Virus record (IMG/VR): IMGVR_UViG_3300010429_001617
Source of the DNA: a virus
Lineage: Duplodnaviria > Caudoviricetes
Length of the DNA stretch: 64,000 nt
Strand: one strand, 5' to 3'
In this document: one piece after another, positions 2,357 through 62,508 of the stretch
How the letters are laid out: each line of letters begins with the position of its first letter
How positions within the stretch are numbered: the stretch's first letter is position 1
The notes under the pieces: model-generated
The model's database searches: none
Told to the model about the DNA's origin: nothing
Seen by the model: only the letters and a program-made list of their open reading frames with translations
Program-made: the position numbers and the translations under genes

Positions 2357-3658
2357 ATGAGAAATTTTGAACGTATTTTTTATGATGCCCCAAATAAATT
2401 TTGTATTAAATTTTCAGATCACAAAACCTATAAAGATTTTTTAGTTTTTTTAGAAGAAAAAGGATTTTCGTGGGCGGCTAATGGAGAAAAGCCAACAGCG
2501 AGAGATTACTATATAGAAGGCAATGAAGAAAGGAATGTTATAGGGGTCGAAAAATTTACTAAACATGTTTGGAATAATTTTTTTGGAGAAATTTTTGATT
2601 CTAGAAAAGCAAGAAAACAAAATTTAGAAGAAGATCCCTGGGATGAGGAAAATTGGGGATTTTTAGATGAATCTAACAATTTTGATAGTTTTAAACATAT
2701 TTTTGATACTACACCAGATGAATTTTGTGTAAAATTTTCAGATCCCATATCTTATAAAAATTTTTTAGCTTTTTTGGAGGATGAAGGATTTTTGTGGGGA
2801 GGTTCCCTAGGCAGACCAACATCACTTAATTATTGGTATGAAGACTGTATTTTTAAATTTGTGGGCGTGGAGAAATCTAAGAAATATGTATGGAACAATG
2901 AGATGGACACAATAGTAACTTTTGATGATAATATAAAAAAGAGGAAACTAAATCTAGAGAACGATCCCTGGGGTGAAGAAGACTGGGGATATGTTGAAGA
3001 AAGAATGATAAATGAGAATAAAGAAGAATATATCATTGGCGATGTAGTCAAGCTTGGTGGAGAAGTAGATTCTTATAAACTAGAAAATATCACTGGAACC
3101 ATACATAGGATAATCGAAAGATGTGGTGGAATACATATTAATTCGGATATTCATGGAAATATAAAAGGATTTTATACTGGATTAGCTTATTTTATAAAAG
3201 AAATAGATTGGTGGGTATCTCCTTACAATATAATCGGACCAAAGACCGATATAAAAAGAAAACATAACTTAGAGGATGATCCTTGGGGTGAAGAGAACTG
3301 GGGGTGGGAAGAAATAAAAGAGTCTGACAATTTTGATAGTTTTGAAAATATTTTTGATAATGCCCCAGATAAATTTAGTATTAGATTTTCAGAAAAGGAG
3401 TCTTATAAAAATTTTTTAGTTTTTTTGGAAAATAAAGGATTTTTCTGGGGAGGCAGCGGTCAATACCCAACAATGCGAAATTATTGGTATGGAATTAATA
3501 GGTACATAGGTGTAGTAAAATCTGAAAGAAAAATATGGGATCAACCAGTTGGTGAGGTTTATGATTACGATAAAACTTTGACCAATAAAAAAAGAAAACA
3601 TAACTTAGAGGACGATCCTTGGGGTGAAGAAGACTGGGGATATTTAGATGAAGATTAG
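2357..3658 (+). CDS. four-module protein, each module ending in DDPWGEExWG
   Basis: Modules 1, 2 and 4 are homologous (FCIKFS..YK.FL.FLE.KGF.W); four tag copies. Confidence 0.75.
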   Translation: MRNFERIFYDAPNKFCIKFSDHKTYKDFLVFLEEKGFSWAANGEKPTARDYYIEGNEERNVIGVEKFTKHVWNNFFGEIFDSRKARKQNLEEDPWDEENWGFLDESNNFDSFKHIFDTTPDEFCVKFSDPISYKNFLAFLEDEGFLWGGSLGRPTSLNYWYEDCIFKFVGVEKSKKYVWNNEMDTIVTFDDNIKKRKLNLENDPWGEEDWGYVEERMINENKEEYIIGDVVKLGGEVDSYKLENITGTIHRIIERCGGIHINSDIHGNIKGFYTGLAYFIKEIDWWVSPYNIIGPKTDIKRKHNLEDDPWGEENWGWEEIKESDNFDSFENIFDNAPDKFSIRFSEKESYKNFLVFLENKGFFWGGSGQYPTMRNYWYGINRYIGVVKSERKIWDQPVGEVYDYDKTLTNKKRKHNLEDDPWGEEDWGYLDED

Positions 3659-5056: not shown

Positions 5057-5404
5057 ATGAAGCATTTAAAATTATACGAAAACCAAGAAAAATTTCTTTC
5101 CAAAGAGTTTTCTATTTATGATCTTAATGAAAAATATCGGCGTGAGGTTATAATAATGTTAGTAACAAATAATACAAAAAACAAATATGTTGAATTTTAC
5201 ACTTATCCAGAATACGAGAAAAAAGAAATATTTGTTAAAGAAGTTTATGAAAAAAGAATTTATAATAAAACTACAAATAAAATTGAATGGGAGTTCTATT
5301 TCATAGATGACAAAGGAGTTGAATATCGTGTTTCAACATCAAGAAGAAAAATCAAATGTTATGCTATCAGAAATGAGGATGATCCTTGGCTTGAAGATTC
5401 TTAA
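5057..5404 (+). CDS. small protein with MKHLKLYE leader and C-terminal DDPWLEDS tag
   Basis: Both peptide motifs present; TAATATATA at 5042. Confidence 0.65.
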   Translation: MKHLKLYENQEKFLSKEFSIYDLNEKYRREVIIMLVTNNTKNKYVEFYTYPEYEKKEIFVKEVYEKRIYNKTTNKIEWEFYFIDDKGVEYRVSTSRRKIKCYAIRNEDDPWLEDS

Positions 5405-17299: not shown

Positions 17300-17722
17300 A
17301 TGTTTGAAATAATTATTAAAGGAGTTGCTGGTGAATGTAACATAGATAGAAGAAAACTAGGTGATCGAGTATCTGAAATAGATTGTCAAGATTGTTTTTC
17401 TGAATATTTTCATGAAGAATTTAGATTTGGTGGTCAAACAACTCGTAATCAACAAGATCTAATAAACAAAGGTGTAAAAGGTGGATATATGAGATTTTCT
17501 TATGAAAAGAATAATATCTATGTTATTGTTGAGTATGAATCGAGAGAAAAACTAACTGATGAAGAATTGGATATATTGAAAAGGTATACACAAGGTCAGT
17601 TATCAGATGGTATAGGAGAAGGATTTGAACAATGCCCATGCTTATATATAGATGGAGAAGAAGTATATTTATCACCTTGGTATAACGGTCAAAAATTAAG
17701 TGTTATTCAAAAAGAAATATGA
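17300..17722 (+). CDS. hypothetical phage protein
   Basis: 140 aa, conserved-looking GQLSDGIGEGFEQ motif. Confidence 0.6.
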   Translation: MFEIIIKGVAGECNIDRRKLGDRVSEIDCQDCFSEYFHEEFRFGGQTTRNQQDLINKGVKGGYMRFSYEKNNIYVIVEYESREKLTDEELDILKRYTQGQLSDGIGEGFEQCPCLYIDGEEVYLSPWYNGQKLSVIQKEI

Positions 17723-18333
17723 AAGATATGGAAACTAGAAAGATATCGGTTAACGCTGAAGATCTCAAACCCAGTCAGAATGACCTATATTTAGGTCATA
17801 TTTTTTCTAGATTTATTGTAAGAGATGATGAAAGAAAGTCAGTTTTAAACTCAAGCCTAAAAGATCTCGATATGATAATAAGTCAAGATGATTATATTAT
17901 AGACGGACACCATAGATGGGCTTTGGTTATGATATTAGATCCAACTTGCGAAATCATATGTACCCAAATCAAGAAAAAATTTGATGATATTATAGATGAT
18001 TTGGATGATATTTCCGATAAAGAACCACATAAAAAAAGCGGAGAGTTTAAATTAGAAGATTGGATCGATAAAAAAGATGATGTTGTGAAAAATAAGATAA
18101 TTGATATAATGAAGAATGCTATTAAAAACGGTGTTTCTGTTGGTGAAAACCACTATCAATCCGACAAAGATTGGAAATTGAAAAAATATTTAAAAAAAAT
18201 AGGAAAAAAATTAGATATTGAAGAAGAAGATGTTATCGATTATCTTTATGATAATTTGAAAAAAATACCAAGAACGAATAAAAAGATAGAAAGAAAACAT
18301 ATGCCTCAAGTTAAAAAAGAGGATGTTGAATAA
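17719..18333 (+). CDS. ParB/Srx N-terminal domain protein
   Basis: LKPSQ and IISQDDYIIDGHHRWA. Confidence 0.75.
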   Translation: MKDMETRKISVNAEDLKPSQNDLYLGHIFSRFIVRDDERKSVLNSSLKDLDMIISQDDYIIDGHHRWALVMILDPTCEIICTQIKKKFDDIIDDLDDISDKEPHKKSGEFKLEDWIDKKDDVVKNKIIDIMKNAIKNGVSVGENHYQSDKDWKLKKYLKKIGKKLDIEEEDVIDYLYDNLKKIPRTNKKIERKHMPQVKKEDVE

Positions 18334-18760
18334 GAAAGAATTATTGATGACGGAAGTTCCAATTGAGATTTTTAAAATGCAAAAAGGTTATCATATTCTA
18401 TGTAGAATTAAAATAAAAAACAAAGAATATAGAGTAGTAATAGACACTGGTTCAACAGAAACTATATTCGATATAAAAAAAATAGGAAATATTTTTAAAG
18501 AAAAAATAGAAAAAACTGATGATATAACATACGATTTTAATGGAAATCTTATAGAGAATGATGTAGTTGGAATTGAAGAATTTTTTATAGGTGACATAAA
18601 AATAACAAACAGAAAAATAAAACTTTCTGATTTCAATAACTTCAACAACAATTTTCGTAAAAATGGATTACCTTTAATTGATGGTATAATCGGTAATGAT
18701 ATTCTATATGAATATCAAGCTGTTATAGATTACAATAAAAGAATTCTTTATTTGTTGTAG
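18323..18760 (+). CDS. retropepsin-like aspartyl protease
   Basis: VIDTGS catalytic motif and DGIIGNDIL. Confidence 0.85.
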   Translation: MLNKKELLMTEVPIEIFKMQKGYHILCRIKIKNKEYRVVIDTGSTETIFDIKKIGNIFKEKIEKTDDITYDFNGNLIENDVVGIEEFFIGDIKITNRKIKLSDFNNFNNNFRKNGLPLIDGIIGNDILYEYQAVIDYNKRILYLL

Positions 18761-19728
18761 GCTGGGTCGTAATTTGCCTTGTAAGTGTTATTCCAATATA
18801 AATTTTCACCATTTAATTTTTTTAAATTGTCACTGGTGGATAATAAATTGTATTTGAAATTAACATACATTGAATCAAATGGGCAATAATTTGGAAACTT
18901 CGTTTCTTCCAGTTGTATTATAAAATCGTAATTCAATCCATATGAAACCGCTCCCTTAGACTTCAAATGATTTGTTATCAGAATATCATTTATCGAACCG
19001 CCACCCAATTCACCGTAATAATTACCATATACTATTTGATGTGTACCAGCTTTATTTTTTCCGTTATCAACAAATTGTTCGCCTTCTTGAAAAGTTTTTC
19101 TGGCAACAATTCTGCCTTCTCTTATCAAAACAACGGCTCCAATATTTTTTGGATTTTTCGTGTATATATCAAACCATGATTTATCAGGCTCGGCATAACC
19201 AGAACCCCCTGGCTCCTTCTGCCCGAAATTGGCACAAGTGAAACCAAACTTTTTTAAATCTAATTCTTTAGTATAGTTATAAGCTCTTAAAATATCATCA
19301 CCTCTCAGCTCAACAATTTCCACTCCTTCTTTTGAAAAATTGTTTTTTAATTCCTTATTGAAAGCATCAATGTCCAATGGTGTCAAATTTTTATCTAAAA
19401 ATTCATCTTTATAAAATAATTTTATAGCTCTTGACATTTTCATCGAAGTCCTCCTTTTACTGTTCCATGGATCTGGTTCTTCATTAAAATATCTTGGTTT
19501 TAAAAACGTCAGATTTCCTTCATTATCATATGATAGATAACTTGGAAGATCTTCTTGTAGATTATGTGGTTCCACAACAGCGTTGAATAAATCTATATAA
19601 AGAAAAGAAAGTTTGTTCTTTATTTTCATTAAAAGAGTATAAAGTTCGTTTGATATAAGAATTCCCCTTTTTCCTCTTATGTTCTTATATTGCTCGTTTA
19701 TCAAGAATTGTTTGAAATTTATAAGCAT
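18748..19728 (-). CDS. hypothetical protein with capsid-targeting-like leader
   Basis: MLINFKQFLINE|Q; late promoter at 19754. Confidence 0.6.
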   Translation of the reverse strand: MLINFKQFLINEQYKNIRGKRGILISNELYTLLMKIKNKLSFLYIDLFNAVVEPHNLQEDLPSYLSYDNEGNLTFLKPRYFNEEPDPWNSKRRTSMKMSRAIKLFYKDEFLDKNLTPLDIDAFNKELKNNFSKEGVEIVELRGDDILRAYNYTKELDLKKFGFTCANFGQKEPGGSGYAEPDKSWFDIYTKNPKNIGAVVLIREGRIVARKTFQEGEQFVDNGKNKAGTHQIVYGNYYGELGGGSINDILITNHLKSKGAVSYGLNYDFIIQLEETKFPNYCPFDSMYVNFKYNLLSTSDNLKKLNGENLYWNNTYKANYDPAYNK

Positions 19729-23828: not shown

Positions 23829-24440
23829 ATGAAAACACTTTTTGTTATTAATCCTCATTCAATTATTGATGTTATAACTAATTCATCATCAGAACTTTAT
23901 GTTTTTAAAGGGAAAAATAAGGAAACTATTGAAAAAATGATAGAAGAAATTTATCCAAATTATTTGAGAGAATATGAACCCATTGTTAATATAACGGAAT
24001 TGAGTTCGGGCGAATTGAATAATTTTATTTGGTATCATACTCAACCCGATGGATGGCCTTCTAATAGAGAAGATTATAATTTGATTGGTGATTACACATT
24101 CGATGAATTATATGAACCTGTGAACAGATTTGGTAGAATTGAATATAGGTTGAAAGATAATAGGTTTAAAAAAACAAAAATTAAAAAATTTAATGATTTC
24201 AAAAAAAATGATTTAGATGATCCCTGGGGGGAAGAATCTAATGATAATATTGATGTAATTGATCAATATGAATTGAGAGATTGGATGAGAAAGTTTGTCA
24301 CAGATGATAATATTCAAGAAGTAATAAATAGAATAGATCCAGATCACGAGATGTATTTTATGTATTCTATTGGGGAAAATCCTGATTGGGAAGAGCAAGA
24401 AAAATTAATGAAAATCGGAGATAGATATCACTTAGGTTAA
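23829..24440 (+). CDS. hypothetical protein (DVITNSSSE family) with internal DDPWGEE
   Basis: IIDVITNSSSELYV N-terminus; adjacent to radical SAM gene. Confidence 0.6.
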   Translation: MKTLFVINPHSIIDVITNSSSELYVFKGKNKETIEKMIEEIYPNYLREYEPIVNITELSSGELNNFIWYHTQPDGWPSNREDYNLIGDYTFDELYEPVNRFGRIEYRLKDNRFKKTKIKKFNDFKKNDLDDPWGEESNDNIDVIDQYELRDWMRKFVTDDNIQEVINRIDPDHEMYFMYSIGENPDWEEQEKLMKIGDRYHLG

Positions 24441-45852: not shown

Positions 45853-46215
45853 TCAACTATCCTCCCCGAAAGGATCTTCATCTGAGATCACTCTTTTTGT
45901 TATTTTTATTATATCATCGTACTCGCCAGGTGAAACAGATCTTCCATTTTCGAGTATAAATTGAAATGAATAACTATACATATTATTATCCATAGTCACA
46001 ATTATCGAGATTTCATCGACGATGCCATCAGAAGTTAAAATTTTAACTCGTCTATGATAATAACTTTGATATAAATAAAGAATAGTTCTTTTTATATCTA
46101 TTGTGTTCACATTGAAACCCAATTTATCTAAAATCTCATGAAGATTTGTTTTCTCTTCAACATAAGAGACATTTTCATCTTCTTGTTTTTTAAAGAAATT
46201 GAATTTTGTTTTCAT
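45853..46215 (-). CDS. small protein with MKTKFN leader and C-terminal EDPFGEDS tag
   Basis: Both motifs; late promoter at 46223. Confidence 0.6.
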   Translation of the reverse strand: MKTKFNFFKKQEDENVSYVEEKTNLHEILDKLGFNVNTIDIKRTILYLYQSYYHRRVKILTSDGIVDEISIIVTMDNNMYSYSFQFILENGRSVSPGEYDDIIKITKRVISDEDPFGEDS

Positions 46216-49383: not shown

Positions 49384-50313
49384 ATGTTAAGCGAAGTATC
49401 GATTGAAATTAGAAGAACTGACGATATAGAAAATATTTATAATTATCTTATCGATCAGGGATATGGACTTGATAAAAAAAGAATGTTAAGTTATGGTGTG
49501 AGATATATATGGATACATTCTGTCTCGAATATAACTTATAGTAAAAGCGGCACCAAATGGAATAATTATGAAATAATGAATTTTGATGAATTTAAAAATA
49601 GAATCGATATTCAAAAAAATAGAAGAAAAAAACAAAATGTAGAAGAAGATCCTTGGAATGAAGAGGACTGGGGTTACGTCGAGGAAAAGAAAAACAATTA
49701 TAATTTTCAAATAGGCGAAAAGGTCAGATTAAAAAGAAGCGTTAAACATGAAATATATGGAAGACCTATTTTGGCTCTATCAAATGCTAAAGGTGAGATA
49801 GGCGTAATAGAAGAAATATTCGATGAAGATAAATATGCCTATAAAGTGAAGTGGAAAAATGGTTTTGTTGACCGGTATTCAAAAGATGAAATAGTTCCAG
49901 CCTTAAAAACAACGAGATTATTAAAATTATCCGACGATCCTTGGGGTGAAGAAAACTGGGGATTTGTTAAAGAAAATGTTAGTGATTTTGAATTTTTGAA
50001 AGACTATAACATATTATATTCCACATATGATGAGATGTTTGATATAGCTAAGAAGTTGGTGGAAATCGGATTTGATGTATATGGATATAGTTGTGAAAGA
50101 GATAATAAATTGGAACATGAATGGTATAAATGGAATTGTTTTGTATGGTCACCAAACAAGTATTTTGTTCAATCGAGAATAAATCGTGATTTTAAAAGAA
50201 TGGATTATGATGATTTTATAAGAATCACTGGAGGGGCAATAAGAAAAAGAAAATTAAAATTAGAAGATGATCCTTGGGGTGAAGAAAACTGGGGATATAT
50301 AGAAGATGATTAG
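49384..50313 (+). CDS. three-module protein, each module ending in DPW.EE.WG
   Basis: Three tag copies; middle module SH3-like (FQIGEKVRL). Confidence 0.7.
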   Translation: MLSEVSIEIRRTDDIENIYNYLIDQGYGLDKKRMLSYGVRYIWIHSVSNITYSKSGTKWNNYEIMNFDEFKNRIDIQKNRRKKQNVEEDPWNEEDWGYVEEKKNNYNFQIGEKVRLKRSVKHEIYGRPILALSNAKGEIGVIEEIFDEDKYAYKVKWKNGFVDRYSKDEIVPALKTTRLLKLSDDPWGEENWGFVKENVSDFEFLKDYNILYSTYDEMFDIAKKLVEIGFDVYGYSCERDNKLEHEWYKWNCFVWSPNKYFVQSRINRDFKRMDYDDFIRITGGAIRKRKLKLEDDPWGEENWGYIEDD

Positions 50314-53980: not shown

Positions 53981-54733
53981 ATGAAATTCTTGAAAATATA
54001 TGAGCAATTTGAACTGGATGATGATCCTTGGGGTGAAGACTCACCAAGAAAATATACATTTGGAGAGTGGTTTAAGGAAAATTATGGAAATAAAGATCCA
54101 CTGACAATAAAGACAATTGATTGCTATAATAATTCTCTGACCAGTCTCGATGAAATAGAAAACTTGATAAATCTTAGGGAGTTATCTTGTCATCATAATT
54201 CTCTCACCAGTCTCGATGGAATAGAGAACCTGATAAATCTTGAAGAGTTATATTGTTCTAATAATTCTCTCACCAGACTCGATGGAATAGAGAACTTAAT
54301 AAATCTTAAAGTGTTATATTGTTATAATAATTCTCTCACCAGTCTCGATGAAATAGAAAACTTGATAAATCTTAAAGCGTTATCTTGTCATCATAATTCT
54401 CTCACCAGTCTCGATGGAATAGAGAACCTGATAAATCTTGAAGAGTTATATTGTTCTAATAATTCTCTCACCAGACTCGATGGAATAGAGAACTTAATAA
54501 ATCTTAAAGCGTTATCTTGTTCTGATAATTCTCTTGTCAGCCTTGCGGGAATAGAGAACTTAATAAATCTTAAAGTGTTATATTGTTATAATAATTCTCT
54601 CACCAGTCTCGAGGGAATAGAAAACTTAATAAATCTTAAAGTGTTATATTGTCATAATAATTCTTTCTCTGATGAATATAAAGTTCATTTAAAAGATCAT
54701 TGTAAAAAAAGAAATATAAAATTGTACATATGA
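53981..54733 (+). CDS. leucine-rich repeat (internalin-type, 22-aa) protein with leader and DDPWGED tag
   Basis: MKFLKIYEQFELDDDPWGEDS followed by ~8 L.C.NNSLTSLDGIENLINL repeats. Confidence 0.9.
   Translation: MKFLKIYEQFELDDDPWGEDSPRKYTFGEWFKENYGNKDPLTIKTIDCYNNSLTSLDEIENLINLRELSCHHNSLTSLDGIENLINLEELYCSNNSLTRLDGIENLINLKVLYCYNNSLTSLDEIENLINLKALSCHHNSLTSLDGIENLINLEELYCSNNSLTRLDGIENLINLKALSCSDNSLVSLAGIENLINLKVLYCYNNSLTSLEGIENLINLKVLYCHNNSFSDEYKVHLKDHCKKRNIKLYI
54122..54665 (+). repeat. 66-bp tandem coding repeats with a 198-bp higher-order duplication
   Basis: aattctctcaccagtctcgatg.aataga.aac.tgataaatctt recurs; unit order ABC-ABC. Confidence 0.85.
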
Positions 54734-55509
54734 ATCACCTGAAACTATATGAACAATTTAGATATGGTAGAGAACCAGATCTTCGTAGAATGACAAATAT
54801 TGTTAGATGTGTCAAAAGAAATTATGAGCCATATTTTACACTAAACAGATATTATGACGTTAAAATATGGGGAAATCCACAAAGGGCAATAGAAGAATTT
54901 CATATAAATGATTATATTCCAGTTGAATGCGTTTCAAAAATCAGGATAAAATCAAATAGAAGTGATTCGCTGGAATTAGATTTATCTAAAAAACAAGATT
55001 ATAATTTCTTTTTCGATTACTTTGAGTTAGCTGATGGAAAAAAGATGAAAAGAAAACAAAATTTGGAAGATGACCCTTGGAGCGAAGAAAATTGGGGATA
55101 TGAGGAGATAAAAGAAAATTCACAAAATGGTGTGATATCATATAATACCACAAGACATATGAATGATAATGAATTATTATCATTATTAAAGAAAAAAATT
55201 ATTGGAAGAACCATAGATTTTCACGCTTTATGTGAAACTGGTAGAGGAAAAAATATAATACACTATAGAATTAAAGATATAAGAGATTTTTATGTTAAAG
55301 ATGTTTATATTGGTGACGGCGATTTTATTTTCATAGAAGGCGTCGGCAAATATGATGACGATAAGAAATATGAAGCCAGTTATATTTTGAGTAAGACGGC
55401 AGATATATTTTATTCACTAACGAGCGAAGAAATAGAAAAAAGAAGGCAATTAACAGATTTACATAAAGAAGAAGATCCTTGGGGTGAAGAAAATTGGGAA
55501 ATCAATTAA
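54730..55509 (+). CDS. two-module protein with MNHLKLYEQ leader and two DPW tags
   Basis: EDDPWSEENWGYEEIKE|N internal; EEDPWGEENWEIN terminal. Confidence 0.7.
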   Translation: MNHLKLYEQFRYGREPDLRRMTNIVRCVKRNYEPYFTLNRYYDVKIWGNPQRAIEEFHINDYIPVECVSKIRIKSNRSDSLELDLSKKQDYNFFFDYFELADGKKMKRKQNLEDDPWSEENWGYEEIKENSQNGVISYNTTRHMNDNELLSLLKKKIIGRTIDFHALCETGRGKNIIHYRIKDIRDFYVKDVYIGDGDFIFIEGVGKYDDDKKYEASYILSKTADIFYSLTSEEIEKRRQLTDLHKEEDPWGEENWEIN

Positions 55510-58542: not shown

Positions 58543-58673
58543 ATGAAGTATATAAAATTATACGAGCAAAAGATTTTGAAAATGATTCCTGGGGAGAGGA
58601 TACACCTCGTGAAAATAGTTTAATAGACATACTTAGAATGATATTTTATGGCATTCATATTTTTTTAATTTAA
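58543..58673 (+). pseudogene. frameshifted remnant of a leader+tag gene
   Basis: MKYIKLYEQ, then after a 1-nt shift DFENDSWGEDTPRE, paralleling the LRR N-terminus. Confidence 0.55.
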
Positions 58674-62289: not shown

Positions 62290-62508
62290 ATGGAAAAAAC
62301 CTTTGAAAGATTTCTGAATATTTTTAAGGAAAAATCTTGTGACGACGATGATATCGCTGAAAAAATATATAAACACATTCAGGAAAATGATATTTTTGTG
62401 AATAAAGATATTCGTGGTTATCATTTTCATATTTTGTTAAATGAGACGGAAAATGATAGGGAAGATCCGTTTAATGAAGACTCAGCAAATTCTATTGAGA
62501 TTTCGTAG
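62290..62508 (+). CDS. small protein or fragment with MEKTFERFL leader and EDPFNEDS tag
   Basis: Both motifs; may be truncated. Confidence 0.45.
   Translation: MEKTFERFLNIFKEKSCDDDDIAEKIYKHIQENDIFVNKDIRGYHFHILLNETENDREDPFNEDSANSIEIS

Follow-up and report, generated by a model that had tools for sequence, protein, structure and literature searches.

A portable acidic-aromatic peptide at module ends in proteins of Mahaphage-type huge phages, with a possible role in head loading

Introduction

Conserved terminal peptides of ~10 amino acids occur on encapsulin cargo (cargo-loading peptides) and on the HK97 maturation protease (a C-terminal capsid-targeting tail), binding to hubs through acidic-aromatic tails is widespread (SSB-Ct, Hsp70 EEVD), and eukaryotic proteins carry DP[F/W] motifs that bind the AP-2 appendage as well as acidic-Trp motifs. 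In phage T4 the capsid-targeting sequence (CTS) is carried by IPI-III and Alt and processed by the prohead protease gp21, in the part of Mullaney & Black 1996 that is relayed in PMC5694885; T4 CTS propeptides comprise 10-20 residues, and the head proteases of T4, phiKZ, 201phi2-1, and SPN3US cleave after Glu (PMC5694885). Polyvalent proteins of phages and conjugative elements join 2-15 unrelated conflict-related domains in one polypeptide (Iyer et al. 2017, PMC5512222). Here we describe a peptide, called the tag below, that closes each of the four modules encoded by a 433-aa open reading frame (ORF; positions 2357-3658) of IMG/VR virus record IMGVR_UViG_3300010429_001617, of which a stretch of 64,000 nucleotides (the window) was analysed. 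The tag is a conserved, portable, and apparently undescribed peptide of the Mahaphage lineage; the first-pass annotation of the window had known of no description of it, and a literature search likewise gave none in a phage context.

Like the T4 CTS, the tag is a short portable peptide on unrelated proteins and is tied to a hydrophobic-x-Glu motif; a T4-type head maturation protease is predicted for the clade, and the N-terminal leaders of the phage resemble the T4 CTS. Unlike the T4 CTS, it is acidic-aromatic, lies mostly at C-termini or between modules, is predicted to stay on the product, occurs on ~9% of genes, and joins up to 12 modules per chain, and its targeting role here is putative. 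The T4 CTS is an N-terminal propeptide of 10-20 aa that is removed, a description that fits the MKHLKLYE-type leader alone and not the tag. With polyvalent proteins, which are thought to be co-delivered with DNA and sometimes processed, the tagged chains share the presence of many unrelated domains in one phage polypeptide; polyvalent proteins lack a single conserved junction peptide, unlike the tagged chains, and most tagged modules belong to no Pfam family. No embedded zincin-type peptidase was seen in the tagged chains, a further difference from polyvalent proteins. The DPW/DPF core, the acidic disordered context, and the frequent repetition recall AP-2-binding motifs, but the bacterial host has no AP-2 and the resemblance is most likely coincidental.

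Form and distribution of the tag

Translation of the ORF at 2357-3658 (plus strand; P0001) bears out the four-module architecture first read from the sequence, with the tag at the end of each module. The modules are ordered A-A-B-A and there is no N-terminal leader; modules 1, 2, and 4 are copies of module A, the commonest family of tagged modules. The four tag copies (RKARKQNLEEDPWDEENWG at residue 93, KKRKLNLENDPWGEEDWG at 203, KRKHNLEDDPWGEENWG at 308, and KKRKHNLEDDPWGEEDWG at 420) share the consensus [K/R]3-4-x-N-L-E-[DEN]-D-P-W-[GD]-E-E-[ND]-W-G. Each internal copy is followed by a protease-like site, as had been claimed (arrows mark the putative cleavage position): FLDE↓S at junction 1 (aa 83-105, 2603-2671, plus strand; RKARKQNLEE-DPWDEENW-GFLDE↓S), YVEE↓R or MINE↓N at junction 2 (aa 194-220, 2936-3016, plus strand; KKRKLNLEN-DPWGEEDW-GYVEE↓R..MINE↓N), and EEIKE↓S at junction 3 (aa 300-322, 3254-3322, plus strand; KRKHNLED-DPWGEENW-GWEEIKE↓S), which has the clade consensus form. 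The last copy lies in the C-terminal segment (aa 411-433, 3587-3655, plus strand; KKRKHNLED-DPWGEEDW-GYLDED-stop), with the stop 7 aa downstream.

A six-frame scan of the window with the pattern [DEN]DP[WF]x[ED][EDN] gave 14 copies in 8 ORFs, against the approximately 15 first estimated, and every copy lies in a coding frame. Nucleotide shuffles yielded 0 copies and proteome shuffles a mean of 0.018. The scan recovered the repeated architecture that had been reported at 49384 (three modules) and 54730 (two modules).

The window, with a G+C content of 29%, encodes a T4-like baseplate wedge (phrog_219), a large beta-helix fibre, GluRS, and tRNAs. Homologues of 45 of its 83 ORFs are found in LR756501.1 (LR756501 below), with structural proteins 67-81% identical; this 735-kb 'uncultured phage' has the largest genome of the Mahaphage clade, and a Bacteroidetes host is predicted for it (PMC7162821). 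ORF 2357-3658 is present on contigs of up to 190,656 bp. A search of IMG/VR did not recover the DNA of the window. Three IMG/VR relatives (3300010429_001696, 3300025715_000012, and 3300025715_000487) share identical genes pairwise and have few genes of the window; they are evidently fragments of a much larger genome, and the CheckV value of '92% complete' is not to be trusted. Together with the window they provide the 480 ORFs used for tag and module counts, of which 46 contain 70 tag copies. Modules cut out between tags fall into ~51 BLAST-distinct clusters that are shuffled among polyproteins.

An alignment of 24 junctions from this set gives the consensus K-x-K-R-K-x-N-L-E-D-D-P-W-x-E-E-[N/D]-W-G-W-E-E-I-K-E-[S/N], in which the D, P, W, E, E, and W of the tag do not vary. 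This long form is found at junctions and C-termini. A short form, DDPWGE[D/E], occurs 4-8 residues after leaders of the MKHLKLYE↓Q type, at extreme N-termini, or as ...DDPWGEDS-stop. A search of 1.84 billion representative proteins with a junction profile matched 102 (E<=1e-3), and the counts derived from it use 101, since the 42 matched stretches of P0048 lack the DP[W/F/Y] core. The 101 proteins contain 1-12 tags each, at a median spacing of 117 aa (interquartile range 108-130), and 57 of them have a C-terminal tag. The aromatic residue of the core is Y in 165 copies, F in 61, and W in 59, so that the core is wider than first noted and is better written DP[W/Y/F]-x-EE-x-W. The strict DPW long form is confined to five IMG/VR contigs.

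In LR756501 the DPY form predominates in the C-terminal consensus, KR[VI][FY][ST]x[LE]DPYGEE[ND]W[DEN][EDN]-stop, and at the DNA level it occurs 105 times (reversed control, 0). Among its 1,022 ORFs, 92 carry the tag, with 42 copies C-terminal, 22 N-terminal, and 44 internal; the stop follows 2 aa after the W in 32 of 41 C-terminal tags. Only 9 of the 1,022 have two or more tags, and tagged genes often stand in tandem runs of up to four. In the window lineage the tag also serves as the junction of cleavable-looking polyproteins; in LR756501, the best-sampled relative, it is mainly a single terminal one. Tagged proteins include leucine-rich repeat (LRR) proteins, a head-protease paralogue, and nucleotidyltransferases. 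In one 1,178-aa chain of LR756501 (L072:14863-18399, minus strand), a cytidine-deaminase domain is joined through three small tagged modules to a CCA-adding/poly(A)-polymerase head with an HD domain; the chain resembles a fusion of tRNA-repair enzymes in which tags separate the parts. Most modules of the 2-12-module chains match no Pfam or PHROG family and no PDB fold. When motif placement was tabulated across the related genomes, as the first-pass annotation had proposed, copies were found at C-termini, at junctions, and behind leaders. These comparisons support a portable peptide that marks module ends and that appears on more than 50 unrelated module families.

Module anatomy of the 433-aa protein

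Residues 1-215 of P0001 were modelled by AlphaFold2 (AF2) with a 22-row alignment. The model contains two compact alpha/beta domains with a mean predicted local distance difference test (pLDDT) score of 79.9. The tag regions (pLDDT 57-71) form an irregular loop closed by a single beta-bridge, which pairs the residue before KxNLE with the residue after WG. The stretch L103-D-E-S106, which coincides with the proposed cleavage site, is the sole one with pLDDT <50, and the first helix of the next module begins at residue 110. A model of the whole of P0001 from its single sequence was uninformative (pLDDT 30). This predicted anatomy supports the view that the tag closes a domain ahead of a flexible linker and that the modules would be independent folds. 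A word-indexed search for stand-alone homologues of module A (66-210 aa) gave none, and the fold of this module has no clear counterpart in PDB (Foldseek best E 1.1; VIA-align best Z 3.6, R3H/Smr-like at most).

The closed loop could also be taken to mean that the junction is an uncleaved, non-targeting structural connector, a turn or clasp that caps modules in beads-on-a-string proteins. DP-aromatic-G is a good turn former, and most internal tags of LR756501 have no Glu-type site. What makes this explanation quite improbable is that more than 50 unrelated folds are capped by one and the same peptide, which also stands at extreme N-termini ahead of the domain; besides, it closes 57 of the 101 representatives, and the stop in LR756501 comes 2 aa past the W, a free end where a connector would be needless.

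Relation to the N-terminal leader

Leader-like N-termini are enriched, being found in 104 of 478 ORFs (38 at a control position). They are associated with the tag (odds ratio 3.4, p = 3e-4; in LR756501 3.2, p = 1e-6) because the N-terminal tags sit behind leaders. A leader is present in just 6 of 38 proteins with a single C-terminal tag, and most polyproteins, P0001 included, are leaderless; from these counts the tag reads as a signal independent of the leader, which fits the earlier idea of a 'second address'.

Glu-type sites and a possible role in head assembly

In the representatives, [LIVMF]-x-E-polar occurs no more than 12 aa downstream of 165 of the 228 internal tags (72%), compared with 14% for random positions in the same proteins. 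This agrees with the protease-like site first proposed after internal tags, which in the P0001 model lies in the low-confidence linker described above. The site is mostly found 5-7 residues past the second W, with I or V at P3, K, Q, or N at P2, and S or N at P1' in 76%.

Head genes were traced in LR756501, where the gene after the portal (phrog_213, 1e-55) encodes a fusion of a head maturation protease with a Q/A/G-rich scaffold-like region (phrog_207, 3e-29). A paralogue of this protease, of 178 aa (L065:11314-11850 of LR756501.1, minus strand; phrog_207, 3e-19), shares 45% identity with the protease-scaffold fusion (at 73913) and ends in ...YNELDPYGEENWSE-stop. Because it ends with the tag, and because the prohead is its only sensible workplace, this paralogue is the best single hint that the tag may address proteins to the head. 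Moreover, tagged genes are found among structural genes, adjoining the baseplate wedge in both the window and LR756501.

The reading we tentatively favour, at somewhat less than an even chance, is that the tag docks proteins to a shared receptor for loading into the prohead and that a T4-type head protease cuts the Glu sites at the junctions. The tag would be a portable short linear motif of Mahaphage-type huge Bacteroidota phages, of the form [K/R-rich]-x-N-L-E-D-DP[W/Y/F]-x-E-E-[N/D]-W, found in flexible stretches that are C-terminal, that join modules, or that follow a T4-CTS-like leader at the N-terminus. Carried by dozens of unrelated small domains and some enzymes, it would dock them to one receptor in head assembly, and the docked proteins would be loaded into the prohead as cargo, the tag acting as a second capsid-targeting peptide that has no need of the leader. 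In the window lineage, tandem tagged cassettes would have been fused into polyproteins of 2-12 modules, and a hydrophobic-x-Glu↓Ser/Asn site would have arisen at the junction, 5-7 residues past the tag. Cleavage there by the Glu-specific T4-type head maturation protease would release modules of ~100 aa, each keeping a C-terminal tag.

Prohead loading would bring the tag near the encapsulin and HK97 peptides. Like those, it is a conserved ~10-aa terminal peptide on unrelated cargo, here the ~51 module clusters, and its C-terminal form is precisely placed relative to the stop; the protease paralogue is C-terminally tagged too, and by analogy the tag would bind the interior of an HK97-fold shell. 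Unlike them, it has a far larger cargo set and internal and N-terminal copies as well, and there is no sequence similarity.

Huge phages contain small uncharacterized genes by the hundreds, and a label shared by about one gene in ten would sort these into a class of candidate virion cargo or effectors, and would give a handle for finding the receptor of the labelled proteins. It could explain the protein filling of very large capsids, and the natural combination of tag and cleavage cassette would be of use for loading foreign proteins into phage heads.

Several observations weigh against prohead loading with cleavage. In LR756501 the hydrophobic-x-Glu site comes after just 11 of the 44 internal tags, so that cleavage is not a general property of the tag; the Glu site looks like an add-on in lineages with fused cassettes. 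The Pfam S77 match of the LR756501 protease-scaffold fusion (73913) scores 24.1 bits, below the curated cut-off of 27 bits. No head protease was found in the window or the three fragmentary IMG/VR relatives, only in LR756501: portal and head protease are absent from contigs 3300010429_001696, 3300025715_000012, and 3300025715_000487, searches of these with PF03420, PF07068, PF13650, and phrog_207 were empty or sub-threshold, and Pfam/PHROG scans of 20 large ORFs of G001 gave TerL, RNR, ClpB-like, and other proteins and no head genes. Tagged ORFs are scattered along the entire 735-kb genome of LR756501 instead of being grouped at the head module. Finally, 7 of the 92 tagged proteins of LR756501 have a transmembrane-like segment, a rate equal to that of untagged proteins and odd for capsid cargo.

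The last two points would suit a different receptor, a non-capsid hub such as a host protein or a cytoplasmic or membrane factor of the phage (for example a chaperone, unfoldase, or compartment), to which tagged proteins would dock as intracellular accessories or effectors. The presence of the tag at either terminus and within enzyme fusions (deaminase, three tags, CCA-adding enzyme, and HD) is consistent with such a hub, and the relatives encode ClpB-like and Hsp70-like proteins. We regard it as rather unlikely, given that a head-maturation-protease paralogue is tagged, that N-terminal tags stand 4-8 aa behind T4-CTS-like leaders and junctions have Glu-type sites, and that several tagged genes lie among structural genes. 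The comparison with SSB-Ct and clamp-binding tails, made in the first-pass annotation, does not go beyond analogy, as many copies are internal or N-terminal; SSB-Ct places a free C-terminal aromatic on one hub-binding protein, whereas C-terminal copies of the tag have at least two polar residues after the W and ~9% of proteins carry the tag.

A retropepsin-like protease beside polyproteins of related lineages

A second candidate processing enzyme is a retropepsin-like aspartic protease, P0103 (18323-18760, plus strand), with DTGS at aa 41-44 and GNDIL at aa 124-128, both invariant in six homologues; its true start is probably Met9. It scores 23.2 bits against PF13650 (cut-off 24.3) and also matches RVP, its close homologues have precomputed PF13650/PF13975 matches, and in PDB retroviral-like aspartic protease 1 was matched at E 0.006. 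The homologues form a tight phage subfamily (39-66% identity), apart from the 'retroviral-like aspartic proteases' of Bacteroidota; a search of IMG/VR gave no relatives of the retropepsin.

The 12-module polyprotein P0017 adjoins a gene for a 135-aa clan-AA aspartic protease homologous to P0103 (E = 2.5e-37). More generally, the immediate or near-immediate neighbour of the retropepsin gene is a convergent multi-tag ORF, often overlapping the 3' end of the protease gene, in L049/L052, L053, L056, L057, L058, L059, and LR756501, where one of the 9 multi-tag ORFs is this neighbour. The junction might thus be a recognition and cleavage cassette of the retropepsin and not of the head protease, in the manner of Gag-Pol processing, and the pairing in seven lineages, the diagnostic DTGS and GNDIL motifs, the family and PDB matches (with homologues above cut-off), and the distinct phage subfamily all speak for it. 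Retroviral Gag-Pol is likewise a case of a small clan-AA DTG aspartic protease associated with multi-module polyproteins. Unlike in Gag-Pol, the site here is of the Glu type and the gene orientation convergent; the protease groups with homologues from Bacteroidota and not with retroviral ones, and cleavage is putative.

A homologous C-terminal module (...RWY-x-KG...) recurs in the polyproteins that adjoin the retropepsin gene, because of which the synteny may be one inherited arrangement, and the genes, being convergent, are not co-transcribed. The retropepsin gene of the window is 15-36 kb away from the three polyproteins, and its convergent neighbour has just a degenerate DPW. Furthermore, hydrophobic-x-Glu↓S/N is the signature of T4-type serine proteases and not of a retropepsin (PMC5694885), and the protease is translationally coupled to a ParB-like gene instead. 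A complex prediction of the retropepsin dimer with a junction peptide, run without controls, scored 0.00 and counts neither for nor against binding. The link of the retropepsin to the tag is inferred only, and we consider junction processing by this enzyme distinctly unlikely; if true, this would be the first description of a polyprotein-processing aspartic protease from a tailed phage. A wider, effector-addressing scheme, in which the tag loads the products of ~9% of genes, singly or as polyproteins of 2-12 modules, into the head for co-injection and the polyproteins are matured in the particle, possibly by the retropepsin together with the T4-type protease, in a retrovirus-like strategy, is also unlikely in our judgement.

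The convergent neighbour in the window (18748-19728, minus strand) is a leader-bearing 326-aa protein whose tag, NEEPDPWNSKRR near aa 93, is degenerate; this protein may be a decayed counterpart of the polyprotein that relatives have at this position. The ParB-like gene (KPSQ...DGHHR type in relatives, phrog_2859) overlaps the retropepsin gene within 17719-18760; the pair is kept in at least eight related phage lineages, in seven of which it adjoins tagged polyproteins and an SbcC-like gene.

Codon usage at the tag

Synonymous codons differ at every conserved position of the tag (GAT/GAC, all four Pro codons, all four Gly codons, GAA/GAG), and the codon counts agree with the initial suggestion of selection at the peptide level. 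The one anomaly is Pro, which is CCT in 77-82% of tags. Outside tags, Pro before TGN is CCT in 69%, and in DPF/DPY tags it is CCA in 60%, as in the genome overall. The CCT excess is explained by genome-wide avoidance of CATG, which shifts Pro before TGN from CCA to CCT. Once this is allowed for, codon usage at the tag is that of the genome, so that selection is on the peptide and not on a DNA element; the DNA-level reading was dropped on this ground. CATG is about two-fold under-represented in the window and G001-G003 (in the window, 103 observed vs 182 expected), a deficit that may reflect avoidance of a host restriction site.

Cassette turnover at the baseplate-wedge slot described below, the shuffling of modules among polyproteins, and the invariant D-P pair could be read as marks of a DNA-level recombination or cassette boundary, or of an Asp-Pro self-cleaving site. 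Both are highly improbable: there is no extra nucleotide conservation at the tag, W, Y, and F interchange in the peptide, and Asp-Pro cleavage of a C-terminal tag would free just a decapeptide.

Other tagged genes of the window and their surroundings

The two other polyproteins of the window are P0010 (309 aa, three modules; 49384-50313, plus strand), which adjoins the baseplate wedge gene and has junctions with VEE↓K and VKE↓N, and P0012 (259 aa, two modules; 54730-55509, plus strand), which has the leader MNHLKLYE↓Q, a junction with EEIKE↓N, and a C-terminal tag. P0012 follows an LRR protein (53936/53981; 53981-54733, plus strand), in which the leader MKFLKIYE↓Q is followed by an N-terminal tag, FELDDDPWGEDS. 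Pfam and PHROGs searches of the tagged ORFs of the window gave nothing credible besides the LRR domain in 53936.

Single copies had been reported at the ends of three further ORFs, of which two are indeed terminal: a 115-aa ORF (5057-5404, plus strand) has the leader MKHLKLYE↓N and ends in a short-form tag, EDDPWLEDS-stop, and a 120-aa ORF (45853-46215, minus strand) ends in DEDPFGEDS-stop. In the third, of 72 aa (62290-62508, plus strand), REDPFNEDS stands 7 aa ahead of the stop. The copy placed inside the 203-aa ORF at 23829-24440 (plus strand) is present as the short form DDPWGEES at aa 131. A tag behind the leader had been listed for both 53981 and 58543; the former has it, and the 26-codon ORF at 58543-58620, MKYIKLYEQKILKMIPGERI..., carries the leader only (MKYIKLYEQ, then stop). 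This ORF lies just after GluRS and probably represents what is left of a gene that had a leader.

In both the window (49384-50313) and LR756501.1 (574513-575341), tagged cassettes fill the slot that separates the baseplate wedge gene from a conserved 219-aa gene. Their modules are unrelated and their orientation is opposite in the two genomes, and the slot appears, from this comparison, to be a hotspot of cassette turnover.

Another acidic-Trp tail was noticed at L058:10432-11270, where three tandem 94-aa SH3-like genes beside the retropepsin gene end in RIRWYSKGNFSDWED...; the same tail also ends the adjoining 428-aa tagged ORF.

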